64,000 nucleotides of DNA from Candidatus Omnitrophica bacterium UBA6215 (GCA_002421665.1 DISH01000006.1:217784-281783), one strand, 5' to 3'. Shown: positions 1,279 to 60,406, counted from the stretch's first letter. Notes: generated from the sequence alone by a model not told the origin. A program made the numbers and translations.

Positions 1279-1302
1279 GCCAGCTCACACTCCTGAAATT
1301 TA

Positions 1303-2798: not shown

Positions 2799-2821
2799 TT
2801 GGCGCTCCCAGAGGTGTGAAA

Positions 2822-2898: not shown

Positions 2899-2904
2899 AA
2901 AAAA

Positions 2905-2981: not shown

Positions 2982-2997
2982 ATGAAAAGTATTAGAT

Positions 2998-3026
2998 ATG
3001 ATACTATTTCGGGGTATTTTTGGCAA
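2998..3026 (-). promoter_or_regulatory. Putative sigma70 promoter for the tRNA-Met/tRNA-Val transcript
   Basis: On the minus strand, TTGCCA, a 17-nt spacer and TATCAT sit about 16 nt upstream of the tRNA-Met 5' end, in the 67-nt gap between the rpoD stop and the tRNA. Confidence 0.4.
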
Positions 3027-3048
3027 GCCAAAAATTACTGCGGAGGCG

Positions 3049-8019: not shown

Positions 8020-9399
8020 ATGGCTAATACGGCTTGCAGCGAAAACCTTAAGGTCAAGAACGAGGTCGCGGACCGCGTTCTTCTTGTATTGAATTCCTAC
8101 GATAAACTTGAATTCTCCCCGGATCTAAGGCAATTCTTCAAAAAGAAATTAAGGGAAAAATACAACAAGGTAATAGAGGTCGAGCTTATAGGCATGGCGG
8201 AGCTCGGGCAGACCAGGGGAAACCTTACCGGTTACCTCAGGACGCACGAGCGTATAAAAAAACTCATGTCAAAGAAAAAACTCGATTCCTTCGATACTAT
8301 CATATACATACATGACGCCGGGTTGGCTACCAGGATCTTCCCCCTCTCTTATGAGTTTGGGACCCCGTCAAAGGCAAGCATAAGGTTCCCCGAAGGCAGG
8401 GCGCCGGACATGCTTCTTCCCTGCATAGCGAAAAGTATCCCGCTTTTAAAGAATACTGTGGTAATATTGCCGATAGACCAGTATTTCGACTATTCGGATA
8501 TAGATATAGGCGGACTCCTCAAGTCCCTCAACAAAAATACCGCTTCCATGCTCTTCACTCCCGTCCAGATAAACAGGGCTCTGGGAAGCCTGGGGACGGC
8601 TAAACTCGGAGAGGACAATTCTATTTCATGTTTCTACGAGAAGACCTTTGACGAAAAATTAATACCCAAATTCGGAAAGAATATGACGCTGGCAAACACT
8701 TTCCAGCTTTTTATGACCAAGGAAGGCATAGACAAGCTCCAAAATGCCCTTGATCTTTTCTGTTCCAAGGAAAAGAACAAGGACTTCATAATCCACTTGA
8801 ACGCAACTGAATGGAGCTTCAATAAACTTGTCTGCGAATCCCTTGTCCTCAACAAAAAAGCCCTCTCAAAGATACAGTTGTCCATGCGTGAATGCCTGCA
8901 GCAATATGAGATAAGCGTAGGCGGCGCGGTAGCCAAGGGATATTGGATAGACTGGGCGTCAAATATAATGACCTACCTGGAACTTTTGAGGAAACTTACG
9001 GCACAAATAGCCAAGCCGGACGAATACGGCAATTATTTCGTCAGGAGCAAGAAGATAAAGCCTTCGAGTAAACTGGAATCGTGCGTATTCATCGATTGCG
9101 ATACCATAGATCTTTTCGGAAGCTATAAGAATTGCATATTCATAGCTTGCGAATGGGTCAGGATAATGAATTGCTTCGAGGGCAACGGCTCCCTGTTCTA
9201 TGCACTCAAAAAGAAGAACTTCCTGCGCAAAGAGATGAATTACAAGCTGTTCGCAAATTTCTTAAGCGGAAGGCGCAATATAGAGTTCGAATGCGACATC
9301 TATGATGACTACAGGAACCTCTATAGCGCAATGAAGAAGGTCAGTGACGACTGGCTCTATTATCACGAAGTCCTGAAGGAAAGCTACAACACTAGGTAA
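8020..9399 (+). CDS. Hypothetical protein with divergent sugar-phosphate nucleotidyltransferase-like (GT-A) segment
   Basis: 459-aa ORF. Residues about 95-160 (HDAGLATRIFPLSYEFGTPSKASIRF...VVILPIDQYFDY) resemble the NTP_transferase signature GxGTRLxPLT...PK...GDhiy, but two of the three signature glycines are replaced. Convergent with the giant gene; the 3' ends overlap by 8 nt. Confidence 0.55.
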   Translation: MANTACSENLKVKNEVADRVLLVLNSYDKLEFSPDLRQFFKKKLREKYNKVIEVELIGMAELGQTRGNLTGYLRTHERIKKLMSKKKLDSFDTIIYIHDAGLATRIFPLSYEFGTPSKASIRFPEGRAPDMLLPCIAKSIPLLKNTVVILPIDQYFDYSDIDIGGLLKSLNKNTASMLFTPVQINRALGSLGTAKLGEDNSISCFYEKTFDEKLIPKFGKNMTLANTFQLFMTKEGIDKLQNALDLFCSKEKNKDFIIHLNATEWSFNKLVCESLVLNKKALSKIQLSMRECLQQYEISVGGAVAKGYWIDWASNIMTYLELLRKLTAQIAKPDEYGNYFVRSKKIKPSSKLESCVFIDCDTIDLFGSYKNCIFIACEWVRIMNCFEGNGSLFYALKKKNFLRKEMNYKLFANFLSGRRNIEFECDIYDDYRNLYSAMKKVSDDWLYYHEVLKESYNTR

Positions 9400-12300
9400 T
9401 CTTCTGGAAGTCTGTCGAGAACGCCTTTATACACCTGGACATATAGATCGTAACAGCTTTCTTGGCCCTTACCTCATCCTCATAAACCCTAACAAGCTTG
9501 GCTTTGTAGGCGCGATCCAGTTTCTTCCAGATATCTTCCATCGCCCTGACGTTCTCGTTAAGCCTGTTAAAATCATTTATGATCACGCTGCTGTAAAACT
9601 TGCCCAGGTAGACCCTGTCATCGGAGGTATGCTCTACGTTCAGGATGAGCATATAGGCCGCCTCCAACACCACAAAAACCCATAGCCAGTGAGAATAGCA
9701 CCTTGCGTTGAACTCTGAGGCAAAATAGAGCAGGAACGTCAACAGGATTGTAAATATGAACACGGCTTTTACCCTGCCCAGCACCCTGTTATACCTTATC
9801 TCTGCCTGCCTGTCGCTCTGTATGAGTTCTTGGTGCGAAAAATACATATCGTCCATAAGATCGGACTTCTGGACCGAAGAAGCAGCCGGGTAACCGGGCA
9901 GGTTATCCTTCAGCCATTTATTCAATCGAGTATAACCGCTGAGCTTCCATTTCAGCAGCGCCCAACCTATCAGGGAAGATATACCCAGAAGTGTATAGAC
10001 CACCGATTCAGGAGACGCGGTAGCCGGCCCCGAAGCTATGGAACTTATACCCAGGACAACACAAACAAACAGCAATGGTATTATCACGAAGTTCCAGAAC
10101 TTCGAGATCGTCAACTCCTTGAAGAGCGCTATAGGCTGTGAATGGGCAAAAAGCGGCATTATTATGAAAGACAACGTCGTGCTTATATACAACGCCGAGA
10201 ATATGAATAATGCTTTGACCGCCAACGACGAGAATATCAGGCCCCACATGACAAAACCCACTCCCGTGAAGACGAGAAGGACTACGGCATATATTATCTG
10301 CAGCTTGATCACGGACATCTTCCCTATATCCCCGTCAGGGACTACCTCGTCACGCCAGTTCTTAAGGTACGGTATGCCTATCTTGTTCCATTTGACCCCG
10401 GCGGTATACATCAGGGCGACTATGGCAAAAGGCAGGAACGGTATGAAGGGGCTAAGCCATAACGGCATCGACTTCGTCGCCACCGCCACATAAGCCAAAG
10501 GCAGGCCTATTATCGTGCTGAACATGGAGGCCTTCAGTATGTCCCTCTTCTCCCCCCAGATGATCTTAAGCGGTAAATGTCCGAGGTTCCACCCCTTCGG
10601 GCTTATTATGAATATAGCCTTGCCTTTAAGTCCGGCGAGGAACCCGAAGGCATACGCCGGTATGACCGACGCGTAGAAGAAATGATTCTTCGCAACCAGT
10701 CTTAAATATGCCGAGAAAGATTTCTTGAACCCAAAATGTTCAAGCAGGTATGCGATACCTGTTGCGGTTATCGATTGGTTGAAAAGCAGCCCTAAGATAC
10801 CGAATACTATAGGATACGGCACGGCCATGAAACCGTTTATACCCCAGCATATCATCAGCCACAAGTAAAGGAAATTGATTATGAACATGAGCGGCGTCTG
10901 GTAGAAGAATGAGAACCCGAACATAAGCATGAACTTCTGGGCTACGTGCAGGTTCTCGGAATTCAATATACCGGGGATGACCCTGCCTATGGCGGCATCG
11001 GAAGAACCCATGGCCCACTTTGTAAGCGGGACTAGGCTGGTAAAATATGAGGTCTCCCTGCCTTTACCGAAGAGCAGGTATTCCTTATGAGCGGTCCTGA
11101 AACCTTTCTTCCAAAGAGATGTCGCCAACAGTATATCTTCTGATATGTAGTCCTGCGGGAAACCTCCCGCAGCTGTTATCATATCGGTCCTTATGATCGC
11201 ACTATGGCCGTAAAAACCGCAGGCCTGGAATATGTTCAGGGTGCGCTGCGTAACGGATACGAACGTCTCCTCGTTGAAACCTATTGCCTGAGATATCCAT
11301 GAGTAATTTTTGTTGAATATATACTCCGCGAAGAGAACTTCGCCGAGAGCAGGGTCACTCCTGAATTCCGATAATGCCACCGGTATCTTGACGGCGTCCT
11401 CTACCCTGACAGAACAGTTGGCATCGAAGAAAAGTACGGTCTCGCCTTTTATGAAAGGCAGGGCCTGGTTAAGGCCGCTCGGCTTGCCTTTCTTAACGGG
11501 CGCTACAAAAGGTGCGGTCTCTATAAGTTCTATCCTGCCGGAAGTCTCATCATACCTGTGCAGGCCGCAGTCACTGCCCTTGGAATAGGTAACGGCCGTT
11601 TCGTTTTCCCCGGATGTGTAATCGGCATCGCTGGCAAACCAATAAACGTTGAGCTTCGGCATCTCTTTCATCAATCTTCTCAGGGCTATCCTGTCCGAAT
11701 CCTTGGTCGCGGGGCTGTGATATCCCTCATAGTTGAGCAATATCTGGACCTTCTCGGAAACCATGCGCTCTATCTCTCCATCGGAAGACCCCGGGTAGCA
11801 GATGCGGGCGTACATAGCGAAAGCGTCCCGTATCTTGTATACTTCTACGGCCGTCTTCTCAACACACTGGACGGTAAGATTAGCCCACTTGCGTATCTTT
11901 TCCCTGAGCTGTTCGGGCAACCCTTCCGGGAGCCTCTTAAGGCCGAATAACAACTTGAGTTGCTCCCGTGTAACAAATTGCCCCAGATCGGAACTGCCAA
12001 GCCTGTTGACGAATTCTTCCCACTGGGGCCTGTAAAAACCTATAAGGTGGTTTAGCCTGGTAACTTCGGCGCCCCTGTCGCAACCGTTGAGCTCGTCGAA
12101 AGTAAAGCTGACAGGTTCGTTAAAAGCGGTTATCATTGCCGTCAGCGAAGGCAGATCTGTCCAGGATTCCGCCTTTGGCATTTCCATGAGCCAGCTGTTA
12201 ATATAGACCCTTATCCTTTCCGAAGCTTCTTCGGCGCGTGGCGGCCTGTCAATTTTCGGAGTGGGATTCCCGGATGAATAGACAAGCGACTCCTTCTCTT

Positions 12301-15300
12301 TCCCGCTTATGACATAGTAATCGTGGAGTTCCTTTATCATTGCATTCCAATAGGATTTCCACGTCTCATCAGCGAGGCCGGAAGCCTTCCCCCCTGACGA
12401 CATCATTACATCCGAGAAACGCTGCCTCGATAACCCGAATTTCCTTCTCAACTGGCCCCAGGATATGACCTGCCCGACCCCCTCCCTCTTGCCCCGGTAA
12501 AAACCTATAAGGGCTATTATTATATAGAACAGGGAGAAGAAACTTGAGAGTATAAAAGTAAACGTAAGCAGCAGCGCGCTTAAGTTAATGAACAAACCCC
12601 AACCAGCGTTCACGAACGTAAGTTTGATTATTATCCTGACCGTCCAGATTATCACGAATATACTGAACAGGCCCCACAGGTACGATGCGGAAAAGAACAT
12701 AACCCAGAACAATCTGGTGGAGCGTCTTATCTCGCCGCTTTCCGCGCTTGCAAGGCAAGCCGGCCTGTAGTTGCCAAGGCTCCGTTTCATTAATAGCACT
12801 GTCAGCATTACACCGGCCAGGATCAAGAGGGTTATCTCTATGAACACGGCCAACACGTTCGGGGACAAACGCACGATCGGAGAAAGAATATCGACAAGGT
12901 GGACGGACAATTGCTCTATCCTCCCGGCGAACGGCAAGAGCTTCAAGGCTATAGCCGCTCCGCCGAGGATGACAACGGAAAATATCGGTACGTGAAACTC
13001 CCAGAACCTGCGCAAGTTATCTACGAATTGCGGTATGCCGGCCTTGTCCGGGAACGTCTTCATCCACGCATAGCTTTTATAAGACTTCGGGTCCGATGAG
13101 GGCTCCTTGCCGCCTTTTGTCTCCAGGAACAAAAGTTTCTGTTCCGCGGAAGCTCCCGTAAGTTTAGAGAAGGAAGGTATGAATCCCGGCCTCCTGCCCT
13201 CGAAAAGGTCGTTCATGTCGTCATAAGTGAATATATACTCCTTTATAAGGCCGAGTTTCTTATCATATCCCGGCCTCAAAACTTCTATGAATACCTGCAC
13301 ATCGCTTCGGATCTCTTTTAATACATCAGGCCCTTTGCCGGAACGCAGTATGCCAAGCGATTTATCAAACAGGTAATTCCTGAAACCCGGTACCGCCGCC
13401 CTGAATTCCACGGATTCGTCAAATATCAGGCGGAACAATACTACAAGCGCGAGTTCATCCGGCTTATTCCCAAAACCCGACAGCTTGATCCCGCTTCCGT
13501 TCTTGCCCGACCACTTCTCGAACTCCCTCGCCTCAACTGCAAACAGGTTCCCGAGAATTATCTCCTCGCGTCCTACCCTGTCGGCTATCCTCTTTACAAT
13601 GACATTTATACCGGCGGAATGCCTTGAAGGATCTGCGCCAAAATCGCGGAAACGTTCTTCCAGCAAAGGACGGAACGTTTCCATGACCGCGGCAAAAAGT
13701 ACGGACGTAGGCTTATTCCCTTCGTATACATCTATGCATGCTTTCTTGACTTCTTCAGGAAGGCTCGACCTTTCCAATAAGGCCCTGCTAAACGGCGCTA
13801 TGGCGCCTTTCGGCGGCACCTGCGCCTTTGCTTCATCCTCGGCGACCTTTATCCTGCGGGCCCTGCCTGCTTTCAGCCTCCGCCTGGATATATACCCGAA
13901 CATGAAGAGTGTGCCGGCAAATAATGCGGCAAAGAGGATAGGTTTCTGCCATCTTATGGTCTTCATGAGGTATACTGAACTGCTTTCTATATGTTCCTTC
14001 TTGTATTTATACACACCGTTGTCATCAAATTCGTAGTCCGACCTTATCCAGTGTTCGATATCGAACGGCCTGCGTTCGAGGAATGTCTGTGTCTGCCATC
14101 CGTTGCGATGGTAAACGCTGGCATCTCCGAGGAAAACCGCTACTATCTGAGTACCCGGTTTTGTGCCTTCCGGCTGGGTACCCGGTTTGAAATATCTTTC
14201 TATCTTTATGGGCCTTAGGTATGAATACGGGACAAGCGGATCATAATACTCCGTCTGCCTTCCCCCCTGTATCGGGAGTATGTTCATAAGCCTCAATATT
14301 ATGAAGCGGCGCTCGAGAACGATCAGCTGCCCGCTCAGGGAATGGACATCGTAAAAAGCGTAATCGGAATTCAAGACACCGTATTTGACGCCCCTTATAG
14401 GAGGTCCGTCAGGCAGCTTGAACGGTTTCACCTCAGGCTCATAAGGAACCCTGATCATCGGGTGGCTAAATACGCTGCGCGGATATTCGAGCGTTCCGGA
14501 GAAATATTTGATCTCTCCGACGCGCCCGCCTGGTTCTATGGTATGGTAACCGGGCAGCGTCCCGAACGGGGCTTTTTCCACATTATTCATCGCTTCATCA
14601 AGCGCCTTGCGTTTGATGAGCTTCCCGTACTCGGTCTTCAGTAACTCCCTGAGCTGGTCGACCTCCAGGCCTTCCTTGTACCATTCATAGATTACCGTAT
14701 CTTCCTTCTTGGCTATGGCACGGGTACGGTCTTCTCCCCGGTCATCCTTCCAGGATTCCAGCAGGGTATCCCTGCCGAATATGTTCTTCTTGAGCTTGAG
14801 CTTGCTTCCTTTATGCAATGTCGTCTCATCGCCGAGCATCACGAACTTGACGTTCACCAATTCCCTTCCAAGCACGTCATCGGGAATCATATAACTGACC
14901 GTTGTTATGGCTACGGTATTAGTGAAATGCGGGAACCCGTCTTCCCCGGTAACCATCCTGAATATCCTCTTCTTCATCTGAGGCAACAGGGTGTCGGCAT
15001 ATATGCCCAGAGGCTCCATTCTCTTTATATATTTGGGAGAAAGCACCGAATCGGCGCGGACAGAGTTATCGACATCGCTTATAGATACAAGTTCTCCCGC
15101 GAGATTGAACGTCAGGGTCTTTGCCGGTATTTCGGTCTCGGCTATCCAATCTACCGGGACCTCTAAGGTACCGCCGCGAACTATTAACCTCTGCCTGCCA
15201 AGGCTGTCTCCCGGTTCATAGAAAACGAAATAAGGTGTCTCTCCGGGGGCATTAGGGTCACCGGTAAGGTTGCTTGTTACCTCGTTCTCTTCCAGAATAA

Positions 15301-18300
15301 GGCTGTCGCTGACTCTTCCTACCTTCTCGGCACCGAGCCTGTTAAGTATAAGGACGGCCTGCCTCTCCCTTTCATCTTCGGGCAAAGACGTAAGCGACTT
15401 GGTCAGCGCTTCCTTGAAATTCATGATCTTCCCGGTTGTCTTGTAACGGCGCACCCACGCGAGGCCTTGGGTCAGATTCTCCAGGTTAGGAACTTCCTCC
15501 GATAAAGCCTTTCCGGGTGATTCAAGAAAGACTTCCTTGGTGACCTCCTGGTCGGGCCCGTATTTTACTATGGTTATTATGTTCTTGACTATCTGAGCGG
15601 ATATATCCCCTTCCGGAGTATAATATTCCATTTTCTTTGTGTACCGGGCCTTGCCATCCTCGAATATTATCCTCCCGTTCTCATCTTTGGCAAATACATG
15701 CACTTCCGAGACAAAATATTTCTTATCCGGCGTGTAACCTTTGAATATGCTCTCGGATAAGTCGGAAAACCACTCACCGCTCTCGTCAGTACGATAAGTA
15801 TGGCTGCCCACAACCTGAAGCGTGTCCTTGTCATACTCGATATCCGTCCTGATATCGGAAGTGACGACTTTTGTGAGCGGGTCTATTTGTATATTCTCGG
15901 AATATATTGTCTCGAGGTTACCGGCAATATCATAGACCTCCACATAAAGGACCCTCCCGGTAGCCTCATTGATCACCTTGAGCCAGACCCTGCCCGAAGC
16001 ATCGCGCAGATCTCGTCCGAATTCGTCCTTGCCCAGTATGGACTCATAGCTCCTTAGGGTGGATTCGGCCCTTTCTTTTGCCACCTCAAATTCGCCTAAC
16101 CTTTTTTCGGCTGCTTTTGCGCCATAATATATTACGTGGATAAACCCGTCGTCGTCATACCAGGCCAATTCGTTGGAAAGGCGGTCATACTGTTCGATCA
16201 GTTCGAGGCGGGTCTGCGCATCCTTCTCTTCCCTGACCCTTTTGAGCAGTTCAAGCAGCCTTTCCTTGAATTCTTTTGTCTCCGAAGCTATTACGTCATC
16301 GCCGAGGTATATCCATAGCGGCTGCGTAGGGGTAGGCCTGCTTCCGGTGAATTCCTCCCTGGGCTTTATTACCATGCCCTCAATAAGGCCCCTCTCGTAT
16401 TTCACGGCATTCAACTTCGAAGTCTCGCTCGTCCTCCAATTCGTGAGGTTGAACTTGGTACCCATGACTATTTCCTGGCCGCTCTTGACCGAGACGCCTC
16501 CCACCCTCAATCGCCTTGTCTCATCAAGCCCAAGAACCCTGGCGTAGTACATGCCGCGTTCCTGGGTAGCAAGCATACCCTTGTCGTCAGGAACCACACC
16601 GGCCGATATCAGGTCCGCTCTTTGCCAGTCCTGAGCGTTTATATACTTCTTGTATTCCTGTTCGGTAATAGGCACTTTAGAGACGAGGCCCGGCAGGTCC
16701 TCCACGGAATCATAATATTGAAGTATATTCATATCCGCGTCCACCTCGAGGGCGGTAAAATACCTGGCTATCAAATGGCCTTCGGGCAGATTTTTTGCGG
16801 ACTGGAACTGCTGTGCCGGGTTCTTAAGGTCTTCCCTGTTGGCCTCAGGCAAATCGTTCTCGGAAGAGAACTGCCTTACTATGTTGTAGTCGCCGTCTAT
16901 CTCAAAAGCATAATAAGGCTTATAATTACCGTCCAGGCGCAGGTTGTACTTCGGCGCTATCCTCCATTTGATGCCGGTCGAATCGTCGAAATAAGCATAT
17001 TCCGACTTGATCGCTTTGCTCAGGGGCTCCGGGAGATCCGAGAACTTCTTGTAGATTATCTTGAAACCACCGTCAACACCTATAACATCATAATCCCGTT
17101 TTTGCGTATCCAACACCCCGTCAAACCAGCAATTATAGCTCGTCATAAGGACCGCTATGGCCTTCTTCCTGGCTATCGTAGAATCCTTGAGGACCTGATC
17201 GTAAAGGACCTTATAATAAACTATGGGTTTCTTGAGGGCGGCATCCCTGATGGCTTCCTGCTGCGCGATAAGCTCCGCTTCGGATATCACTCTTTCCTGT
17301 TCCGGGATAACTATCGCCTTGGAGGGTTTTGTCACCTTGCCAGGTTCGTTCATCCATTTAGCGATATCCTTGAGCGAGTCGCGTAACGCGAATCCGTTGA
17401 GGTCAAACGGGTTAAACCCAGAAAGAGGGAATGACGCCCATGTGGCCGAGATGTCGGCATCCGCCTGCGGAGTAAGCCAGTTATCGAATGGGTAGCGCCT
17501 TATACCTTTTTCGGAAGCGTAAGGAAGCGACGCGGAAACATCCATCCTTGCGGCCATACGCCCCAGGTTATCGAGGTATAACTTTGCCGCATCGACAAAC
17601 TTTACTGCGGTTTCATTATCCCCCTTATCCCTTGCATGCTTGGCCATGACAAGATAAGCTAACGCAACCTGAGAAGAGAACTCCGGAGACAGCACAGGCT
17701 TTCTGCCCGGCCTGCCGAATTTATCGGTAAAGTCGAATCCTTCTACGCCTTTGACCTTTACCCCGCTAGGATGCAAATAATCTACTTTTACCCTTGCCCT
17801 TTCCAGGCTCTCAAGCAGCCTGCGGCTCGTGTGGATACCGCCGAATTTCACTCCAAACTCCGAATCCAGGACCTCGGGCCCCAGGATTATAATGGCAAGC
17901 GCGTTCGCATCGGTCGCATAAACATCATTTATCTCGTCCTTAGAAGTACCGGCTGTAAAATATCCTCCTCTTACGTTGTACACGCCGCTCGATACCATCC
18001 ATTTAAGGATATTGTCCATCGCATTCTTGTAAATACCCTTCCCGGTGATATCATAAAGCATGCCGAACAGGACGTAACAGTCCAGGTTCTCTTCTGTTGA
18101 CTTAGCATAATATTCCGCATTGCCCTGGAATGGATATTTCCTTATTCCCCCGTTATCCGCCTGGAGATTGATAAGGAACTCGGCACGGCGTTCAGCCGCG
18201 GAAAGCCATTTTTCATCGCCGTTCAATTGATATTCCCTTACGAAGCTTATTCCCCACCAGGCGTTGGGTCCTGCCGTTATGAGGGGATCTTCGCTCAAGC

Positions 18301-18757
18301 CGGTCCTTACGTCAAGGCCGTTGGGGATGTCCCTGGTCTCCCCTCTTTCCATCAACAACCCGGCAACTTTGGAAGAAAATTCGTACTGGCCGGCCATAAC
18401 CATATTCTGGTGGGCAAGAGCCTGCGGATACACATAAGACATCTCCGCAAAGGGGTTCTTCTCGCCTGACTTGGCTATCATTGTAGGCACAAGGCCCGTA
18501 TCGGGATTAGACCATTCGAGTATGAAAGTTGCCAGCTCGCCGGCATTTATTGGGCCATCCTTTTGCTTTGCATTATCCAGGGGATTCGCCGCGGTAACCG
18601 GTATCGCCTTTTTAGACCCATCCGGAGAAGATTCCCTGACGGACACCTTGAAGGCAGGCCTGTGGCATGAACGCATGGCAAGCAGTACCGCCAGCGCCGC
18701 TATCAATACTATAACTATAATTACCTTTTTGCCGTTTTTGGCCATCTCCGGTCTCAT
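9392..18757 (-). CDS. Giant 3121-aa multidomain envelope protein with a glycosidase-like ectodomain and a GT2-like processive glycosyltransferase core
   Basis: An uninterrupted 9.37 kb ORF. N-terminal signal anchor (KKVIIVIVLIAALAVLLA), then about 1650 aa predicted extracytoplasmic, including a six-hairpin glycosidase-like region (aa about 60-470). A TM helix follows at about aa 1695 and TM clusters at about 2050-2250 and about 2700-3121. Between the clusters is a GT-A region with DxD-like LFFDANCSV, a TED-like ISEDILLATSLW and QxxRW-like LVPLTKWAMG. Its ATG overlaps the stop of the upstream OEP gene (ATGA). Confidence 0.8.
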   Translation of the reverse strand: MRPEMAKNGKKVIIVIVLIAALAVLLAMRSCHRPAFKVSVRESSPDGSKKAIPVTAANPLDNAKQKDGPINAGELATFILEWSNPDTGLVPTMIAKSGEKNPFAEMSYVYPQALAHQNMVMAGQYEFSSKVAGLLMERGETRDIPNGLDVRTGLSEDPLITAGPNAWWGISFVREYQLNGDEKWLSAAERRAEFLINLQADNGGIRKYPFQGNAEYYAKSTEENLDCYVLFGMLYDITGKGIYKNAMDNILKWMVSSGVYNVRGGYFTAGTSKDEINDVYATDANALAIIILGPEVLDSEFGVKFGGIHTSRRLLESLERARVKVDYLHPSGVKVKGVEGFDFTDKFGRPGRKPVLSPEFSSQVALAYLVMAKHARDKGDNETAVKFVDAAKLYLDNLGRMAARMDVSASLPYASEKGIRRYPFDNWLTPQADADISATWASFPLSGFNPFDLNGFALRDSLKDIAKWMNEPGKVTKPSKAIVIPEQERVISEAELIAQQEAIRDAALKKPIVYYKVLYDQVLKDSTIARKKAIAVLMTSYNCWFDGVLDTQKRDYDVIGVDGGFKIIYKKFSDLPEPLSKAIKSEYAYFDDSTGIKWRIAPKYNLRLDGNYKPYYAFEIDGDYNIVRQFSSENDLPEANREDLKNPAQQFQSAKNLPEGHLIARYFTALEVDADMNILQYYDSVEDLPGLVSKVPITEQEYKKYINAQDWQRADLISAGVVPDDKGMLATQERGMYYARVLGLDETRRLRVGGVSVKSGQEIVMGTKFNLTNWRTSETSKLNAVKYERGLIEGMVIKPREEFTGSRPTPTQPLWIYLGDDVIASETKEFKERLLELLKRVREEKDAQTRLELIEQYDRLSNELAWYDDDGFIHVIYYGAKAAEKRLGEFEVAKERAESTLRSYESILGKDEFGRDLRDASGRVWLKVINEATGRVLYVEVYDIAGNLETIYSENIQIDPLTKVVTSDIRTDIEYDKDTLQVVGSHTYRTDESGEWFSDLSESIFKGYTPDKKYFVSEVHVFAKDENGRIIFEDGKARYTKKMEYYTPEGDISAQIVKNIITIVKYGPDQEVTKEVFLESPGKALSEEVPNLENLTQGLAWVRRYKTTGKIMNFKEALTKSLTSLPEDERERQAVLILNRLGAEKVGRVSDSLILEENEVTSNLTGDPNAPGETPYFVFYEPGDSLGRQRLIVRGGTLEVPVDWIAETEIPAKTLTFNLAGELVSISDVDNSVRADSVLSPKYIKRMEPLGIYADTLLPQMKKRIFRMVTGEDGFPHFTNTVAITTVSYMIPDDVLGRELVNVKFVMLGDETTLHKGSKLKLKKNIFGRDTLLESWKDDRGEDRTRAIAKKEDTVIYEWYKEGLEVDQLRELLKTEYGKLIKRKALDEAMNNVEKAPFGTLPGYHTIEPGGRVGEIKYFSGTLEYPRSVFSHPMIRVPYEPEVKPFKLPDGPPIRGVKYGVLNSDYAFYDVHSLSGQLIVLERRFIILRLMNILPIQGGRQTEYYDPLVPYSYLRPIKIERYFKPGTQPEGTKPGTQIVAVFLGDASVYHRNGWQTQTFLERRPFDIEHWIRSDYEFDDNGVYKYKKEHIESSSVYLMKTIRWQKPILFAALFAGTLFMFGYISRRRLKAGRARRIKVAEDEAKAQVPPKGAIAPFSRALLERSSLPEEVKKACIDVYEGNKPTSVLFAAVMETFRPLLEERFRDFGADPSRHSAGINVIVKRIADRVGREEIILGNLFAVEAREFEKWSGKNGSGIKLSGFGNKPDELALVVLFRLIFDESVEFRAAVPGFRNYLFDKSLGILRSGKGPDVLKEIRSDVQVFIEVLRPGYDKKLGLIKEYIFTYDDMNDLFEGRRPGFIPSFSKLTGASAEQKLLFLETKGGKEPSSDPKSYKSYAWMKTFPDKAGIPQFVDNLRRFWEFHVPIFSVVILGGAAIALKLLPFAGRIEQLSVHLVDILSPIVRLSPNVLAVFIEITLLILAGVMLTVLLMKRSLGNYRPACLASAESGEIRRSTRLFWVMFFSASYLWGLFSIFVIIWTVRIIIKLTFVNAGWGLFINLSALLLTFTFILSSFFSLFYIIIALIGFYRGKREGVGQVISWGQLRRKFGLSRQRFSDVMMSSGGKASGLADETWKSYWNAMIKELHDYYVISGKEKESLVYSSGNPTPKIDRPPRAEEASERIRVYINSWLMEMPKAESWTDLPSLTAMITAFNEPVSFTFDELNGCDRGAEVTRLNHLIGFYRPQWEEFVNRLGSSDLGQFVTREQLKLLFGLKRLPEGLPEQLREKIRKWANLTVQCVEKTAVEVYKIRDAFAMYARICYPGSSDGEIERMVSEKVQILLNYEGYHSPATKDSDRIALRRLMKEMPKLNVYWFASDADYTSGENETAVTYSKGSDCGLHRYDETSGRIELIETAPFVAPVKKGKPSGLNQALPFIKGETVLFFDANCSVRVEDAVKIPVALSEFRSDPALGEVLFAEYIFNKNYSWISQAIGFNEETFVSVTQRTLNIFQACGFYGHSAIIRTDMITAAGGFPQDYISEDILLATSLWKKGFRTAHKEYLLFGKGRETSYFTSLVPLTKWAMGSSDAAIGRVIPGILNSENLHVAQKFMLMFGFSFFYQTPLMFIINFLYLWLMICWGINGFMAVPYPIVFGILGLLFNQSITATGIAYLLEHFGFKKSFSAYLRLVAKNHFFYASVIPAYAFGFLAGLKGKAIFIISPKGWNLGHLPLKIIWGEKRDILKASMFSTIIGLPLAYVAVATKSMPLWLSPFIPFLPFAIVALMYTAGVKWNKIGIPYLKNWRDEVVPDGDIGKMSVIKLQIIYAVVLLVFTGVGFVMWGLIFSSLAVKALFIFSALYISTTLSFIIMPLFAHSQPIALFKELTISKFWNFVIIPLLFVCVVLGISSIASGPATASPESVVYTLLGISSLIGWALLKWKLSGYTRLNKWLKDNLPGYPAASSVQKSDLMDDMYFSHQELIQSDRQAEIRYNRVLGRVKAVFIFTILLTFLLYFASEFNARCYSHWLWVFVVLEAAYMLILNVEHTSDDRVYLGKFYSSVIINDFNRLNENVRAMEDIWKKLDRAYKAKLVRVYEDEVRAKKAVTIYMSRCIKAFSTDFQKIT

Positions 18758-21700
18758 TTTGACACGTAAGTTATATATGAATCAATACCCTTGGCTGTAT
18801 ACCTCATAAGGTACCGGTCAAGCTCGTTCATAAGGCTGACCATGTGGTAATAAGCCTGTATATTCTTTATTTTGTTGTTCAACAGGGTCTCTTTTATCTC
18901 CCTGATCCTTACGACGGACATGTCCCCGGTTGCTTCTTCAGCGCGCATGAGTTCGTTCATCCGTTCCTCGAGTACGGATACGTTCTTTTTAAAATTCTCG
19001 TAGTCCAAAACGGCCATCTTATAATCGGTGAAAATCCTTAAAGCATTCTGGAGTACCTCAGACATGTACGACTTCGACTTGAGGGCCGTTATCTTCTCCT
19101 GTAACGCTGCCACTCTCGCCTTGGTGGCCGTGGTAGGGTCGAATATCTTATCCATGGAATTAAGGGATATGAACTCCGAGAGAGAATTATAGCGGGAGAA
19201 TATGGCTTCATTCCTTGTTACTGATCCCATGAAGTCGGTAAGATAAGTATACTCGAGATTGAAAGTCAGGGACTTGATCTGCTTTGATATGGCCTCGGTA
19301 TCAAGCCTGGTCATCTTTATATTGTATTCGATCCGTTTCAGCAGGTCTTCGCGCAGCGGCACCTCCAGATCCTTCTTCGCCAGCCCAAGTTCTGCAGCAA
19401 GCCTTTCTTTTATATCACAGTCATCGGCCAACGTCACTCTCTTGGACAATTCGTCATAGACCTCGATATTCATTATGGAGAACCTGGGGTCAAGCCCTCC
19501 GACTACTATACCGAGATTGCTCCTGTAGCCCTCGCAATATTTACGGGCATCTATTGTTTTTTGCAGAAGGCTTTCTACGAATTCCTTTTGTTTGAGATAA
19601 TCGACATGGGCTACCGCTCCCGCCGTGTAAAGCTCCTCGACCCCTGCAAGAACCGCTTTCTGTTTCTCGCATTCATCGTTTACCTGCGAATATTCCGCGA
19701 GCGAAGCCAGGTAATCGCAATACGCATCCACCACTTTTACGCTGAGGTCGAACTTGGCCTGCTCGAGGTCTTTCCTGGCAAGTTCAACCCTCAATTCCTG
19801 TTTCTTTACCATAAGCTTGTTCACAAGATCCACTTCCGCGGAAACGACCGCCCCGGTCGTCTGGACGGTCTTTTTCTTCTGGGAACCCCTGTTATCCATC
19901 ACATAATAACCTTTGCTTACGTTGCCGTTGACCCTTATCATCTTATAATAGTTCAGGGACTCTTCCTCAAGTAAGAGGGCTTCCTCGTATTTTTTGACCT
20001 CGCGGCTGTTACGCAAAGCGATATCCAGGGCCTCCTGAAGACCCGACAGAAGTATCTTATCGCTTCCTTCCTGCCGGGCGTCTTTCTCCACAAAGAGGAT
20101 CTCCCTTGCGCTTGCGTAGTAATTATCGAACACTGACTCTTCATAGGTCAGCTGGGAGACAAGGTAATCAAGGCGGGCATCCGCCCATTGACGTTTTGTC
20201 CTTCCCCCGAACTTGTAAAGTTCATCCGTTATCTTGAACTGGTTCCCGGAATTCTCCATCTTGTTACGCAGATCATTGAGAAGGTCGTTCGAGGCGTCGT
20301 ATGCGGATTTTACGGCAAACTTCTCTTTCTCGTAAGAATCCATGCTCTTCGCGTACTCTATCTCCGATTTTATACGGTCCCTGGCGGCTTCAGACATCGC
20401 TATCTTCTCGGCATGGTCTCCCCAAGGTATAGAGACGCTGAAGGAAAGCTGCTTGTCCGGGTCTTCCCAGCCGTCATAATCTGAACCTTTGGTCTCATAC
20501 CTGACCTGCCATATTGCCCCTTCATAGGCCAAGGCCTTGGCCTCGCCCGCCCTCTTCCTCTCAACGGTATTGAGCGCCTGCTTTACGGAAGCCATGCCGT
20601 CATAATAAGGCTCTACCTTCTCTTTCAGCATCATCTTGAAATCGGACAACCCCTCTTCGCTTCCGAACAGGGCAGGTTCCTTGACCGTTATGGTCTCATT
20701 AAGCGGTATCCCCGTCCATCTCTTGAGATTATACTCGGCTACCGCCAGGGAAAATTCGACATTCGAGATCTCCTTGTCCACTTCAAGCCGCTGGAGGACA
20801 AGAGGAAGTATGTCAGAGTTGGTATACTTGGGGTTTTTCCCCTTCATATCCTCGAGCATATCGTTTATAAGGTCGTTTTTGAGTCGTTTTATCTCGTCAA
20901 GCTTTTTAAGGGTATTACCGAAACGCAGGACGAGGAGATAGTTCCTTATTACCTCATCGGCAACTACGCTCTGTAGGGCCCTGCCCCCGCATTCGGCCTC
21001 CTTGAGCCCTGCTCTGGCGGCTTTTACCGCCGCTCCGACCTTATTGTCGAGTATGCGGCCTTCCAGGGCAAGGAATGCCCTTGTATTCTTAGAAGGAGTC
21101 CCGTTTATGTTCACGTTCTCCAGGACCGCCGCTCCGTAAAGTTTCGGAAGATAACCGGCCTTCTCCGCGCCAATGCGCACCTTTTCTATTTTTATCCTCT
21201 TCTCTGCTATCTGCCTTGCCGTAAGAAGGTCCGCCCTCTCTCCCCTTGAGATCAGGTCCTCGAGCCCCATATCCTGGTAGGTCGGGCTGGTATTCTCCGG
21301 CTTGAGCTCTATCCCGTTGAGATTCGATAAAGTTACCGTATAATCGCTCAGGGCCTGCTGCAAAGCGTATTTGGCCTTGTATAGGTTATCGCTCATCCTT
21401 ATTATCTCGATGACCGGGAGCGAAAGCTTCTCTCTTAGCATCCTCAGGGTGTCTTCCGTCTTCGCTATGTACTCCCTATAGTTATCTATCTTATCCCTGA
21501 GGTCGGTTATTTTCGCGTTCCCTTTGAGGTCGTCGCACTCGAGGTCCTCCGAAGCCTTCAATACCTCAAGCCTGGCTATTTGAGATTCCAGGCTCTTCGT
21601 ATGGTTCAGGCCTTCGGAATGGCCGAAATCCGTAACGAATAACTCCAACTGGGTATCGGTTATTACCTTCCTTTCGAACCTTGTGCCTTTGCCTTCCGCC

Positions 21701-22602
21701 AGGCCGAGTATAGTCGTTGAGGTCAGTTTCAGGCGGGGATTATTGCCTATATGGGCCGCTACGGAAGCTTCCTCGCTCCTCTTCTTGATTATATCAAGCG
21801 TATAGCTTTTGGGTCTTATCTCCGCCTTTTCGGCGAAGACCGGGTCCCTGTTCACGTTACCGGGAAGCTCCTGGACAACTATATCAAGGTCATCGTTGTC
21901 CTCCAACCCCAGCAATCCCCTGAGATCCCGCCTTGTATTAATGAGGGTGTTCAGAGCCCCTATCTTCCTCTCGTTGACTATGCCCAGATAATTCTTCAAT
22001 TCGAGTTTTTCCGTCTCCGTATATTCAGGACTGTCTTTTATAATGCCTATTACCTTCTCGACGGTCTCGACGTTATCGCAACTCATGCGATAATTCTCCT
22101 GCGCCGCGGCAACCGCATAATAAACCGATATAAGTTTCCTTGTTTTCCATGTGACAGCCTGTTTGACCTCAAGCAGGCTTGCCTCATAGTTCTTCCTGTC
22201 TTTGGAGATATAATTAAGGCTGTCGGAAGTGATAGACATCTCTATCACCAATTGCTGTTCCGAGAAAAGGTCTGTCTGCTGGTCGAGGTCACTGAAGAGG
22301 TCGAACGGTTTTACCACGCTTCCCGCTACGCTGATCTTAGGAAGGAAGGTGTCCATCTTCCTTGCCTTTATCCCAAGCACGGCGGCATCGGAGGAAAGTT
22401 TGGCTATCTGGATATCCCTGTCAACTTCATAAAGCTTGTTAAGGGCTGACTCAAGCGAAAGATTACTGCAATCTATTCCTGCCTGTAATTCCTCAGCAGA
22501 ATAAGGTTCTTCCGCACCGCCCGGACAGGATACGAGCATTACCGATACTGTCAACGCGGTAAAAACTACTGCTATAATTTTGATCGATCTTCGGCTAAGC
22601 AT
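18754..22602 (-). CDS. Outer-membrane efflux protein (TolC/OprM/NodT family) lipoprotein, 1282 aa, about three OEP units long
   Basis: Lipobox LVSC in the signal peptide and an OEP-family N-terminal signature LSLESALNKLYEVDRDIQIAKLSSDAAVLGIKARKMDTFLPKISVAG. OEP-like half-repeat starts recur at about aa 245, 445, 640, 830 and 1030. Highly coiled-coil. SD AAAGGGG upstream. Confidence 0.75.
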   Translation of the reverse strand: MLSRRSIKIIAVVFTALTVSVMLVSCPGGAEEPYSAEELQAGIDCSNLSLESALNKLYEVDRDIQIAKLSSDAAVLGIKARKMDTFLPKISVAGSVVKPFDLFSDLDQQTDLFSEQQLVIEMSITSDSLNYISKDRKNYEASLLEVKQAVTWKTRKLISVYYAVAAAQENYRMSCDNVETVEKVIGIIKDSPEYTETEKLELKNYLGIVNERKIGALNTLINTRRDLRGLLGLEDNDDLDIVVQELPGNVNRDPVFAEKAEIRPKSYTLDIIKKRSEEASVAAHIGNNPRLKLTSTTILGLAEGKGTRFERKVITDTQLELFVTDFGHSEGLNHTKSLESQIARLEVLKASEDLECDDLKGNAKITDLRDKIDNYREYIAKTEDTLRMLREKLSLPVIEIIRMSDNLYKAKYALQQALSDYTVTLSNLNGIELKPENTSPTYQDMGLEDLISRGERADLLTARQIAEKRIKIEKVRIGAEKAGYLPKLYGAAVLENVNINGTPSKNTRAFLALEGRILDNKVGAAVKAARAGLKEAECGGRALQSVVADEVIRNYLLVLRFGNTLKKLDEIKRLKNDLINDMLEDMKGKNPKYTNSDILPLVLQRLEVDKEISNVEFSLAVAEYNLKRWTGIPLNETITVKEPALFGSEEGLSDFKMMLKEKVEPYYDGMASVKQALNTVERKRAGEAKALAYEGAIWQVRYETKGSDYDGWEDPDKQLSFSVSIPWGDHAEKIAMSEAARDRIKSEIEYAKSMDSYEKEKFAVKSAYDASNDLLNDLRNKMENSGNQFKITDELYKFGGRTKRQWADARLDYLVSQLTYEESVFDNYYASAREILFVEKDARQEGSDKILLSGLQEALDIALRNSREVKKYEEALLLEEESLNYYKMIRVNGNVSKGYYVMDNRGSQKKKTVQTTGAVVSAEVDLVNKLMVKKQELRVELARKDLEQAKFDLSVKVVDAYCDYLASLAEYSQVNDECEKQKAVLAGVEELYTAGAVAHVDYLKQKEFVESLLQKTIDARKYCEGYRSNLGIVVGGLDPRFSIMNIEVYDELSKRVTLADDCDIKERLAAELGLAKKDLEVPLREDLLKRIEYNIKMTRLDTEAISKQIKSLTFNLEYTYLTDFMGSVTRNEAIFSRYNSLSEFISLNSMDKIFDPTTATKARVAALQEKITALKSKSYMSEVLQNALRIFTDYKMAVLDYENFKKNVSVLEERMNELMRAEEATGDMSVVRIREIKETLLNNKIKNIQAYYHMVSLMNELDRYLMRYTAKGIDSYITYVSK

Positions 22603-22629: not shown

Positions 22630-22824
22630 CTATTTTTTTGCCTTAAGGCCCTGAGAATGCATCTTAAGCCACTCATCTATATCCTGCTTATTGAACAGGT
22701 ATTTCCTCAAAACTTTAACATGCGGGAAACTCTGTTCTTTAATAAGCTTACGGATACTTCCTTCGCTGAGGCTTAGATATCTCGAGACCTCATCCATTGT
22801 TATATATTTCGTGCTTGTATCCAT
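22630..22824 (-). CDS. Small helix-turn-helix DNA-binding protein (excisionase/MerR-like HTH family)
   Basis: 64-aa ORF with the pattern ITMDEVSRYLSLSEGSIRKLIKEQSFPHVKV...DIDEWL typical of excisionase-family HTH proteins. Strong SD (AAGGAG-N8-ATG). Only 27 nt upstream of the OEP gene. Confidence 0.7.
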   Translation of the reverse strand: MDTSTKYITMDEVSRYLSLSEGSIRKLIKEQSFPHVKVLRKYLFNKQDIDEWLKMHSQGLKAKK

Positions 22825-22924: not shown

Positions 22925-24217
22925 CTATTCTGCGGGTTTTTCGGTTTCCCTAAGCTTGCCGTTCTCGTCAAAACTTATCTTTGAACCTTTCGGGTAAAAG
23001 CGCCCCTGCACGTCTTGGTCTCGGCCCAAGATCACATAGCGCAATTTCCCGGATTCCCCAAGGCCCACTATAGTGTCCCTCATAAAAAGGGTCTCTCCTA
23101 TCTTATGGTCTTTGGCCAAGGAAGCATATTGCAGGCTGCCCGATTCATAAAGATCGACCTTTGTGTTCGCTGCACAAGGTATACCGCTTATCTCATTTTC
23201 TTCGCCGAGCGTCGCATATTGCAGTTTCCCGGATTCGTAGAGTCCCGCGACCGTACACTTAGCGCAGGGAATACCGTTTATTTTTTGCCTGGATACAAGC
23301 GTTCCGAATTGCAATTTTCCTGAAAGATAAAAACCGGCTTTACTACCCTTGGCATAATATATGCCGTTTATGTTCTGGTCGTCCGCCAACGTGGCATACT
23401 GCAGGTTCCCAGACTGGTAAAAACCTATGGTGGAACCTTTCGCGCACATGATACCCTGGACCTTGCTGATCTCATTGAGAACCGCCCAATCTACTTTCCC
23501 GTTCTCGTAAAAACTAACACTTGGACCGCTTGCGCAGGTGATACCCATCACCTCGGTAGGCGAAACCAGATACGCGTTCTTTATGCTGCCGGATTCATAA
23601 AAGACGAAGTAAGTCCCCTGCCTGAACTTTACTCCGCCCATGTCGACATCCGCCGGGATCGTAACGTACTGCAGTCTTCCGGATTCATAAAAACCGGCGG
23701 GAAAACCTTTGGCACAAACGATACCCTGTATATCCTGGTCTTTGGCCAATGTGGCATACTGCAATTTCCCGGATTCATAAAAACCGGCTTTTGTGCCTTT
23801 CGCGCAATATATCCTTTGGACCTCTTCATCGGCAGCAAAGACGGCATGTAAAAGCTTTCCGGCCCTACTGAAATACAATGAGGTGCCCTTGGCAAATGGT
23901 ATCCCATAGACCTGCTGGTCCGCGCCAAGGTAGGCGTAATCGAGCTTTCCCGCTTCGTTGAAATATACCGAAGTACCTTTTGTAAAAAAAATACCCGATA
24001 CATGCTGGTCCGCGCCAAGGTAGGCGTACTGTAATCTTCCGGCTTCCGTAAAATAAACAAGCGTTCCCTTAGGGAAATCTATACCCTGTATAGTCTCGGC
24101 TTTTTTCAGGACTTTATCGCGTATGATGACATCGGCGGAAGCGGGAAAACCCGCGGATAGGGCAGCCGCAATGAAGACGGCCGACAGTAAAAACCGGGTC
24201 AGATCTGGACGACGCAA
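22925..24217 (-). CDS. Secreted protein composed of 13 tandem 30-residue repeats (MORN-like/YwqK-like motif)
   Basis: 430-aa ORF. N-terminal signal peptide (FLLSAVFIAAALSAGFPASA), then 13 imperfect repeats of 30 aa with consensus GIxCAKGTxxGFYESGKLQYATLAxDQxIx. No other domain. Confidence 0.75.
   Translation of the reverse strand: MRRPDLTRFLLSAVFIAAALSAGFPASADVIIRDKVLKKAETIQGIDFPKGTLVYFTEAGRLQYAYLGADQHVSGIFFTKGTSVYFNEAGKLDYAYLGADQQVYGIPFAKGTSLYFSRAGKLLHAVFAADEEVQRIYCAKGTKAGFYESGKLQYATLAKDQDIQGIVCAKGFPAGFYESGRLQYVTIPADVDMGGVKFRQGTYFVFYESGSIKNAYLVSPTEVMGITCASGPSVSFYENGKVDWAVLNEISKVQGIMCAKGSTIGFYQSGNLQYATLADDQNINGIYYAKGSKAGFYLSGKLQFGTLVSRQKINGIPCAKCTVAGLYESGKLQYATLGEENEISGIPCAANTKVDLYESGSLQYASLAKDHKIGETLFMRDTIVGLGESGKLRYVILGRDQDVQGRFYPKGSKISFDENGKLRETEKPAE
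22928..24085 (-). repeat. 90-nt periodic tandem coding repeat (13 copies) within the repeat-protein gene
   Basis: The recurring plus-strand element ttcccggattcataaaaaccgg and its variants are spaced 90 nt apart. This corresponds to the 30-aa protein repeat. Confidence 0.7.
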
Positions 24218-25776
24218 TTTCTTCCTTTGTCCTTAGCTTGATAAAGGGCGACGTCCACCCGTTTCAGGAAATCATGGGGAAATATGTCTTTCTTTATGTC
24301 GTCTTCCGAGAGCGTCGTCACTCCGATACTTACGGTAACTTTCAATTTCTTGTCCTCATATTCGACTATAACATCCTCGGCTATCTTCTTGCGTATTCTC
24401 TCCGCCAATATATATATGCCTTCCCTGTCTGTCTCGGTGGCAAGCACTACAAGCTCCTCGCCGCCATACCTTGAAGCAACATCGGACTCCCTAAGGCTGG
24501 CCTTAAGCATATCGGAGATCTTGATCAGGACCTCATCGCCTACCTGGTGGCCGTAGTTGTCGTTGAATGACTTGAAATGGTCGATATCGAGCATCATGAG
24601 CGACAACCTGGTCCTGTACCTCTTAGCCCTGTAAACTTCGGCTTTCAACGTCTCCAGGAAGTAGGAATGTGTATAAAGGTGAGTCAATTCATCCGTTATG
24701 GCTCTCTCCCTCTGTTTCTTCAATTCAATGGTCATCATGTTGAACGACCTGGCGAGCTCGCCTATCTCGTCATCAGTCTTTATGTCTATCTTGTGGTTAA
24801 GGTCGCCTTCACCGACTATCTTAGTACCTATAAGCAGCTTCCTGACCGATACAAGCATGCTGTTTGAAAGCACCAGCCCTATTGCTATAGCCACCATTAT
24901 GCTCAGGATAAGCAGGATGAGGGATTGGCTTCTCATCTTCGCCACGCCGTAAAGAGCTTCCTGGGCAGGCTGCTTTACCACGACCGTACCTTTGATATTC
25001 CCTGACAACGGAAGGTATGATACCAGCATGTCGCCTATATTAGCGCTCCCGGTCTTACCCTCAAGGGCAAGTTTCACCGTATTGTCGTTATACAGGTTTC
25101 CGGTATCCGCATCTCCCGTCTTGTATATAAGGTTACCTTTTTTGTCTGTCACGATTATCGTTCCCCTCTCGCCTATCTTGGTCTGGTCCAGCATAGGCCA
25201 AAGGCTGCGAAGCTTGACCGCGGTCACAAGTACGCCTATCCTCCTGCCGTAGCTGTCATAATCAAATATCGGGGAAGCTATCGTAACAAAAGGCTGGCCG
25301 CCCGAAGAAAAATATATATCCGATATATAACTCTTCTTCTTGGATTTCAGGAAGATGTCGCTTAAGGACATGTCTTTGTTCTGGTCACCCGGGTTCCGGG
25401 AAGCTATCTCTATGCCCTGCTCGTTAAGCACGGCCACGGGGTCCAGCATCTCGTGTTCCGAGATGATCTCATACATCATCTTGTCTATCTGGAAGAGGTC
25501 GAAATCCTTTATGCTGGGCATGAGGGTCATGAGTTCGACTGAAGATTTGGCCTGTTGCAGGAAGTTATCTATCTTGCTGCGTACGTTCTCGCACGCGGTG
25601 AGGTTCCTCTTGAGGACGGCATCTTCCAAGGAACTCTGCCCCTGGTAGATGAGGATCATCCCGCTCAGGAATGTGGTAAATGTCACGAGCAGGATAAATA
25701 TCAGGATAAACCTGAAATTAATGCTGGAAGTAAAAGGGATCTTCTCTCTTGTACTGGTAAGCGGAACTTCTGCCAA
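24199..25776 (-). CDS. Sensor diguanylate cyclase (N-terminal TM, periplasmic dCache-like sensor, HAMP, GGDEF domain)
   Basis: 525-aa ORF with two TM segments flanking an approximately 250-aa periplasmic region. A HAMP-like linker is followed by a GGDEF domain with the active-site variant RYGGEEL and an I-site-like RESD. Overlaps the downstream gene by 19 nt. Confidence 0.85.
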   Translation of the reverse strand: MAEVPLTSTREKIPFTSSINFRFILIFILLVTFTTFLSGMILIYQGQSSLEDAVLKRNLTACENVRSKIDNFLQQAKSSVELMTLMPSIKDFDLFQIDKMMYEIISEHEMLDPVAVLNEQGIEIASRNPGDQNKDMSLSDIFLKSKKKSYISDIYFSSGGQPFVTIASPIFDYDSYGRRIGVLVTAVKLRSLWPMLDQTKIGERGTIIVTDKKGNLIYKTGDADTGNLYNDNTVKLALEGKTGSANIGDMLVSYLPLSGNIKGTVVVKQPAQEALYGVAKMRSQSLILLILSIMVAIAIGLVLSNSMLVSVRKLLIGTKIVGEGDLNHKIDIKTDDEIGELARSFNMMTIELKKQRERAITDELTHLYTHSYFLETLKAEVYRAKRYRTRLSLMMLDIDHFKSFNDNYGHQVGDEVLIKISDMLKASLRESDVASRYGGEELVVLATETDREGIYILAERIRKKIAEDVIVEYEDKKLKVTVSIGVTTLSEDDIKKDIFPHDFLKRVDVALYQAKDKGRNCVVQI

Positions 25777-56010: not shown

Positions 56011-56013
56011 GTA

Positions 56014-60350: not shown

Positions 60351-60406
60351 GGTTTATCCCTCCCACCCGGCTATTTGACCACGCTGTTCAATTAAAATAT
60401 ATCATA

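Follow-up and report, generated by a model that had tools for sequence, protein, structure and literature searches.

A triple-length TolC-family protein encoded with a giant glucan synthase in Candidatus Omnitrophota: a candidate single-chain outer-membrane duct

Can a single polypeptide supply a complete TolC-type channel? The literature consulted describes TolC-type barrels only as multi-chain assemblies, and one paper states that a single subunit holds no barrel. The question is raised by a gene in a 64,000-nucleotide (nt) stretch of DNA from Candidatus Omnitrophica bacterium UBA6215 (GCA_002421665.1 DISH01000006.1:217784-281783), hereafter the window, to which all coordinates refer unless another locus is named. 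The gene encodes an outer-membrane factor (OMF) of the OEP/TolC type that is 1282 amino acids (aa) long, and it directly precedes a gene for a giant membrane glycosyltransferase. On balance, we think it probable that this protein represents three two-repeat protomers fused into one chain, forming a monomeric, asymmetric TolC-like duct that docks on the synthase and conducts its glucan.

Six repeats in one chain

The gene and its parts are laid out as follows.

18754..22602 (stop codon included), minus strand: triple-length OEP/TolC-family gene (open reading frame (ORF) list, translation; Pfam OEP 84.2 bits; AlphaFold2 model)
22525..22602, minus strand: signal peptide with lipobox LVSC, aa 1-26 (read from the sequence)
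21223..22464, minus strand: module 1, repeats 1 and 2, aa 47-460 (OEP tiles, DSSP of the model)
20041..21222, minus strand: module 2, repeats 3 and 4, aa 461-854 (OEP tiles, DSSP of the model)
18757..20040, minus strand: module 3, repeats 5 and 6, aa 855-1282 (OEP tiles, DSSP, canonical OMF matches)

Both its sequence and its fold place the protein in the OEP/TolC superfamily. Scanned whole against Pfam OEP (PF02321, cutoff 22 bits), it matched in four stretches. The repeats were placed by scanning eight overlapping 300-aa tiles, and this located six OEP half-repeats in all, four of which pass the Pfam cutoff alone.

Repeat 1, aa 50-185: 26.9 bits
Repeat 2, aa 365-429: 14.2 bits, E 0.039, weak
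Repeat 3, aa 464-631: 27.4 bits
Repeat 4, aa 701-823: 27.1 bits
Repeat 5, aa 855-1019: 49.0 bits
Repeat 6, aa 1092-1265: 17.2 bits, E 0.005, weak

Module 3 is the most similar to canonical OMFs, and the canonical-size OMFs recovered by an exhaustive search (below) align to this module only.

An AlphaFold2 (AF2) monomer model of aa 47-1246, built from a 15-sequence family alignment, reached a mean predicted local distance difference test score (pLDDT) of 84.4 and a predicted TM-score (pTM) of 0.77. DSSP assigned six beta-hairpins (12 strands) to the model, at aa 89-125, 291-324, 487-517, 696-728, 889-925, and 1111-1154, with a mean spacing of 204 aa. The strands are 11-16 residues long and their faces are alternately hydrophobic and polar. 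Within a repeat, the order is upper helix (15-43 residues), hairpin, long helix (61-68 residues), and return helix (31-37 residues). Over the whole model, this amounts to six long helices plus six pairs of stacked helices, or 12 helical staves. The inventory of a TolC trimer is the same, 12 strands and 12 staves, and the long TolC helices H3 and H7 have about 67 residues. A canonical OMF protomer has about 420-500 aa, two repeats, and four strands; in the chain described here, six repeats and 12 strands are spread over 1282 aa. The linkers that join the repeats are 17-40 aa long and equally short within and between modules, which fits six adjacent positions in one ring. Since a pTM of 0.77 over 1200 residues would be hard to reach otherwise, the three modules are likely to be in a defined packing.

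A preliminary description of this DNA, made from the sequence alone, had predicted six half-repeats spaced about 200 aa apart and, if the protein was triplicated, six OEP matches. The tile scan and the layout of the model bear this out, with four matches significant on their own and two weak. The same description suggested that one chain could supply the full barrel and tunnel, and named a model requiring trimerization as an argument to the contrary. The suggestion gains support from the AF2 monomer, which contains all 12 strands and all 12 staves and may close a barrel by itself.

When the model was compared with the PDB using Foldseek, the top 39 matches were all OMF protomers, among them TolC, OprM, OprN, CusC, SilC, VceC, CmeC, MtrE, ST50, and TOprJ1. 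Each solved protomer aligns over about 410-450 columns, with a TM-score of 0.59-0.77 by the target (TMt) and about 0.27 by the query (TMq), that is, one third of the query.

The ORF itself is intact and ATG-initiated, as seen in the ORF list and the translation, with a ribosome-binding site (AAAGGGG) 4 nt 5´ of the ATG. The extent and the 1282-aa length given in the preliminary description stand; the minus strand, which it left unstated, has to be added. The plus-strand reading of 18754..22602 is full of stops, and the coding strand is therefore the minus strand. Translation and the Pfam OEP match also agree with the earlier reading of a triple-length lipoprotein with an LVSC lipobox and an OEP N-terminus. 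The N-terminus reads MLSRRSIKIIAVVFTALTVSVMLVSC followed by PGG, which corresponds to a signal peptide with the lipobox LVSC and makes Cys26 the predicted lipidated first residue of the mature protein; the typical OMF opening, NLSLESALNKLYEVDRDIQ, comes after it. Only in the close clade is the lipobox Cys conserved; the signal peptides of more distant family members are ordinary and lack it. Canonical OMFs are likewise divided, OprM being lipidated and TolC unlipidated. With NCBIfam outer_NodT (TIGR01845), the protein scored 25.1 bits against a curated cutoff of 210, which leaves it outside the NodT/OprM lipoprotein subfamily.

Family distribution and origin of the repeats

Sequence searches point to a family that is small, deep, and narrowly distributed. 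A word-indexed search found seven close homologues (62-94% identity, 1201-1283 aa), called 'TolC family protein [Candidatus Omnitrophota]' where they are named, and a second such search with the alignment as query found no additional homologues. Run exhaustively against 1.84 billion cluster representatives, phmmer gave only 14 matches. These include seven full-length clusters (1266-1369 aa, 27-62% identity), a few fragments, and four canonical OMFs of 442-475 aa, with E-values of 3e-5 to 4.5e-4, for which the match is to module 3 only. Counting the lineage of the window, there are about eight full-length lineages (50%-identity clusters). A profile search of PDB sequences with the OMF family matched no OMF. 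A scan of species-representative genomes returned eight loci, six in metagenome-assembled genomes of Candidatus Omnitrophota and two in bins labelled 'uncultured Planctomycetia'. The full-length homologues, of 1251-1369 aa and 27-94% identity, lie on many independent contigs.

How the six repeats relate to one another was approached at two levels. Compared by hhalign with a shallow 8-sequence profile, the three thirds of the protein showed no similarity to one another. Six repeat slices cut from the 15-sequence family alignment gave matches in register among the odd repeats (1 with 5, E 1.7e-4 over 176 columns; 3 with 5, E 0.003; 1 with 3, E 0.012) and between the even repeats 2 and 4 (E 0.003). 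Repeat 1 maps to the N-terminal half of canonical OMFs (E 4e-6), and repeats 2, 4, and 6 map to the C-terminal half (E 5e-5 for repeat 4, weaker for 2 and 6); assignment of repeats to one or other half by a small canonical hidden Markov model is ambiguous. The in-register matches of odd and even repeats fit an (AB)x3 origin, in which a two-repeat protomer was triplicated or fused, and the three modules appear to be very old copies that have diverged almost past recognition. Conservation among orthologues is about equal across all six repeats, and the repeat lengths (221/193/210/184/209/219 aa) hardly vary even among members at 27% identity; no module seems to be decaying.

A conserved pair with a giant membrane glycosyltransferase

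What might such a duct carry? The gene directly downstream offers a candidate partner.

9392..18757, minus strand: membrane glycosyltransferase, 3121 aa (Pfam, PDB sequence matches, transmembrane segments)

The OMF stop codon overlaps the ATG of the synthase by 4 nt (ATGA): ...AAATGAGA. In all seven contexts examined, the triple OMF gene lies directly upstream of a giant synthase of about 3100 aa; the related loci are designated here by L numbers.

Window: OMF-synthase overlap 4 nt
L001/L002: OMF 62% identical to that of the window, overlap 4 nt
L003: 89% similarity to the window, overlap 4 nt
L010: OMF 37% identical to that of the window, overlap 4 nt
L011/L012: synthase 44% identical to that of the window, 1350-aa OEP protein 30 nt upstream
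L013: synthase 44% identical to that of the window, 1274-aa protein 4 nt upstream

The conserved pair suggests an unusual two-protein machine for the export of a sugar polymer in Omnitrophota. This translationally coupled pairing, which the preliminary description did not mention, is in our view what accounts best for the architecture of the OMF.

The synthase begins with a transmembrane anchor (aa 12-30), after which aa 31-1605 (about 1575 aa) are predicted to be periplasmic by the positive-inside rule; a GH76-like (alpha-1,6-mannanase-like) region near aa 107-273 stands at the start of this predicted periplasmic domain. Another transmembrane segment (aa 1606-1624) is followed by an RRR-rich stretch, and the cytoplasmic glycosyltransferase core (aa 2174-2644) has transmembrane bundles on either side, at about aa 1918-2086 and 2609-3041. 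Pfam recognizes Glucan_synthase (94 bits), as well as Glyco_trans_2_3 (GT2_3) and GH76; between aa ~420 and ~2170 the Pfam tile scan found nothing, HlyD and membrane-fusion protein (MFP) domains included. Among solved structures, the core matches FKS1/GSC2 with an E-value of 4e-10 and BcsA with an E-value of 1e-7. Judged by these domains and the flanking bundles, the protein is predicted to be a processive inner-membrane glycosyltransferase with a transmembrane channel.

There are 14 full-length homologues of the synthase (43-96% identity), and those with a source name are all labelled Omnitrophota/Omnitrophica. Next in rank is P0035, followed by plant callose synthases (E ~6e-12). P0035, a 5083-aa partial Omnitrophica protein with a Glucan_synthase domain, matches in the glycosyltransferase region only (E 2e-19; 27% identity over 12% of the query), and suggests that further giant FKS-like synthase architectures may be found in Omnitrophota.

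Three further genes lie upstream of the pair in the window.

24199..25776, minus strand: dCache-HAMP-GGDEF diguanylate cyclase (Pfam and NCBIfam)
22925..24217, minus strand: 430-aa secreted MORN-variant repeat protein (Pfam MORN_2, signal peptide)
22630..22824, minus strand: 64-aa ORF immediately 5´ of the OMF gene (sequence reading)

A GGDEF gene was annotated by Pfam near the pair in the window, L001/L002, and L011/L012, and ORFs of 525 aa in L003 and 527 aa in L010 occupy its position, being matched by size and position. With these two included, a diguanylate cyclase is counted near the pair in six of the seven contexts; none lies within the examined part of L013. The MORN-variant protein, encoded between the GGDEF and OMF genes, consists of about fourteen 28-aa repeats (GIxCAKGTxxxFYESGKLQYATL), and a 410-430-aa gene takes its position in L001, L003, and L010. 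The L001/L002 gene that corresponds to the 64-aa ORF in size and position has a Pfam HTH_17 match.

Canonical OMFs work with an MFP adaptor and an RND, ABC, or MFS transporter that are often co-encoded; neither the operon nor the related loci have this arrangement. Pfam detected no HlyD/MFP adaptor and no RND or ABC pump in these operons, the related loci, or the synthase tiles. It also found no TPR or porin domains in the module, where the sole outer-membrane protein is the OEP-type one, and Rfam found no riboswitch near the operon.

Some neighbouring genes at these loci deserve mention in their own right. L011/L012 has a canonical 393-aa OEP gene (2323-3504, minus strand) divergently upstream of the 1350-aa triple OMF. 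In the same locus, the synthase and GGDEF genes are closely followed by those for a 444-aa PilZ-domain protein (23352-24686, minus strand) and a phosphoglucomutase. Near the pair in L013 is a GH16 (laminarinase / KRE6-SKN1-like) gene (1673-2590, plus strand), a neighbour that hints at a beta-1,3- or mixed-linkage glucan as the product. In the window, a 459-aa ORF with no Pfam match (8020-9399, plus strand) is convergent with the synthase gene; L001/L002 has a 459-aa gene in the same position, and these genes may belong to the module.

A proposed duct, its rivals, and its relatives

We propose that both the barrel, with its 12 strands, and the periplasmic tunnel, with its 12 staves, are built entirely from one polypeptide, and that the OMF acts as a monomer whose symmetry is pseudo-threefold (pseudo-sixfold). 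Since the modules are strongly diverged, all six periplasmic helix-turn-helix tips differ, and such a duct would be intrinsically asymmetric. The duct would be co-translated with the giant single-chain FKS1/BcsA-like processive glucan synthase, whose ~1575-aa periplasmic domain, and not a hexameric membrane-fusion adaptor, would span the periplasm and dock on the duct one to one, a stoichiometry that translational coupling would secure. The nascent beta-glucan would pass from the membrane channel of the synthase into the duct and on to the cell exterior, and cyclic di-GMP (c-di-GMP) from the adjacent diguanylate cyclase probably tunes production. A reason for the fusion may be one of symmetry: an adaptor ring is symmetric and goes well with a symmetric trimer, whereas an asymmetric duct would better recognize a partner that is itself single and asymmetric. 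The bolder claim, which we advance tentatively and with somewhat less than even confidence, is that the pair forms an adaptor-free, two-polypeptide machine spanning the envelope. Such a machine would found a class of its own among synthase-dependent secretion systems, and its duct would be the first natural TolC made of one chain.

Several observations weigh against this proposal. Repeats 2 and 6 score under the Pfam OEP threshold by sequence. The OMF model omits aa 1-46 and 1247-1282 and was built from just 15 sequences, and we infer the pairing of strand 1 with strand 12 from the pTM, the element counts, and the linker lengths. An AF2 model of synthase aa 406-1605 was poor (pLDDT 57, pTM 0.39), with no identifiable docking element, and Pfam scans detected no PilZ or other c-di-GMP receptor domain in the synthase. 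Finally, the canonical OEP gene beside the module in L011 indicates that these genomes, all from uncultured organisms, have other ducts.

The alternative that fares best, though we consider it unlikely, is a single-chain TolC-like duct of general use, one that serves efflux or type I secretion systems encoded elsewhere, so that its adjacency to the synthase is mechanistically meaningless. Characterized OMFs, after all, partner with an MFP and an RND, ABC, or MFS transporter, often encoded elsewhere, which is established knowledge (reviewed in PMC8277102), and neither the Pfam tiles nor the AF2 model identified a docking element in the synthase. A meaningless adjacency is difficult to reconcile, however, with a gene order that is conserved family-wide to 27-44% identity, with the two genes overlapping or nearly abutting, or with two families, triple OMF and synthase, that are equally narrow in distribution. 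Moreover, the examined operons contain no adaptor genes, and six dissimilar tips would suit a symmetric MFP hexamer poorly.

Much less probable, in our judgment, is that the chain oligomerizes, for example as a trimer, into a far wider barrel, with as many as 36 strands, that would accommodate a bulky polymer or fibre. Canonical members of the family are obligate trimers, and an open 12-strand sheet would be compatible with the data, closure in the model being deduced. Nevertheless, a pTM of 0.77 for a 1200-residue monomer points to a compact, defined arrangement of modules, the element counts are exactly those of one TolC trimer, and the linkers between modules (17-40 aa) are as short as those within them. 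The mutual divergence of the modules would also be expected if each holds a unique position, as it would in the single-chain duct. Lastly, an ordinary two-repeat OMF with unrelated coiled-coil extensions, or the product of three neighbouring genes artefactually joined, could be suspected from the four OEP stretches reported for the intact protein and from the lack of similarity between its thirds under the shallow profile, but it is refuted by the six OEP-type repeats found both by tile scan and in the model (not two matches and a remainder of coiled coil, as the preliminary description had allowed), by long helices of 61-68 residues, whose normal TolC length excludes the extreme coiled-coil extensions of that description, and by an architecture whose near-invariant repeat lengths recur in full-length homologues of 27-94% identity on contigs from independent assemblies.

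How does a fused, synthase-linked duct compare with known systems? TolC, OprM, CusC, and VceC share its repeat unit (helix, beta-hairpin, helix of about 65 residues, return helix) and, once the channel is assembled, its totals of 12 strands and 12 staves. These proteins reach the totals with three identical chains of about 450 aa and two repeats each, whereas here there is one 1282-aa chain with six diverged repeats. Sequence searches with the triple OMF gave no match to the solved members and reached canonical OMFs only at E-values of 1e-5 to 1e-4. The partner differs as well: here it is a polysaccharide synthase, and the operon has no MFP or pump gene.

A functional parallel comes from Sinorhizobium meliloti, whose mixed-linkage beta-glucan, made by BgsBA under c-di-GMP control, requires TolC; a tripartite BgsA-BgsB-TolC complex has been proposed (PMC13438883). 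The likeness lies in a processive beta-glucan synthase linked to c-di-GMP and dependent on a TolC-type duct for making or exporting its product (PMC13438883), a combination that we propose for Omnitrophota as well. There, the duct is the housekeeping trimeric TolC, encoded elsewhere, and the MFP BgsB joins it to the synthase; here, the duct is single-chain and operon-encoded, no MFP is found, and the synthase has a predicted periplasmic domain of ~1575 aa.

The Bcs cellulose, Pga, Alg, and Pel systems resemble the pair in having a BcsA-related processive glycosyltransferase in the inner membrane, adjacent c-di-GMP genes, and a dedicated exit in the outer membrane encoded by the same operon. 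In such synthase-dependent exopolysaccharide systems, the exit consists of a TPR scaffold and a 16-18-strand porin (BcsC, PgaA, AlgK/E, PelB/C). The exit here is instead a TolC-type barrel with its tunnel, and the glycosyltransferase core is closer to the eukaryotic FKS1/callose synthases (GT48) than to BcsA. The triple OMF may lie in a new type of synthase-dependent secretion module. Autotransporters, in which a 12-strand barrel is formed by one chain (classical) or by three chains of four strands each (trimeric), offer a conceptual parallel only; their fold and function are unrelated to those of the OMF, and no homology is implied.

A literature search, which was not exhaustive, found no precedent for a single-chain, fused, or monomeric TolC or OMF, and in a comprehensive review of tripartite systems, terms for a fused, triplicated, or pseudo-trimeric OMF gave no match (PMC8277102). 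A search for Omnitrophota TolC, glucan synthases, or giant genes found nothing on the OMF-synthase pair. If the proposal is true, one polypeptide is enough to fold and insert a whole channel of 12 strands and 12 helices, and the channel would be a test case for how BAM and TAM handle such barrels. It would also be a natural single-chain scaffold in which each of the six tips and every strand could be changed separately, something for which homotrimers need engineered concatemers. The pairing suggests that the periplasm can be bridged without a membrane-fusion adaptor and would extend the finding that TolC serves beta-glucan synthases (PMC13438883). Both partners would be of interest, the duct as well as a bacterial relative of FKS1 and callose synthase with a huge periplasmic domain.

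Elsewhere in the window, SecD and SecF are fused in a 739-aa protein (40848-43067, minus strand; Pfam SecD_1st, SecDF_P1_head, and two SecD_SecF_C), another one-chain form of a machine that usually has two chains. Five consecutive ORFs at 51859-61438 (minus strand), of 1027, 355, 1041, 403, and 343 aa, have no Pfam match at E <= 1e-5, and after them comes a gene for a 786-aa PA14-domain protein (61420-63780). The window also contains a bacterial class A RNase P RNA (1301-1650, minus strand; 208 bits) and two tRNA genes (2825-2898 and 2908-2981, both on the minus strand). A mechanically listed ORF at 2067-2900 overlaps one of these tRNAs, and its real start is probably further downstream.

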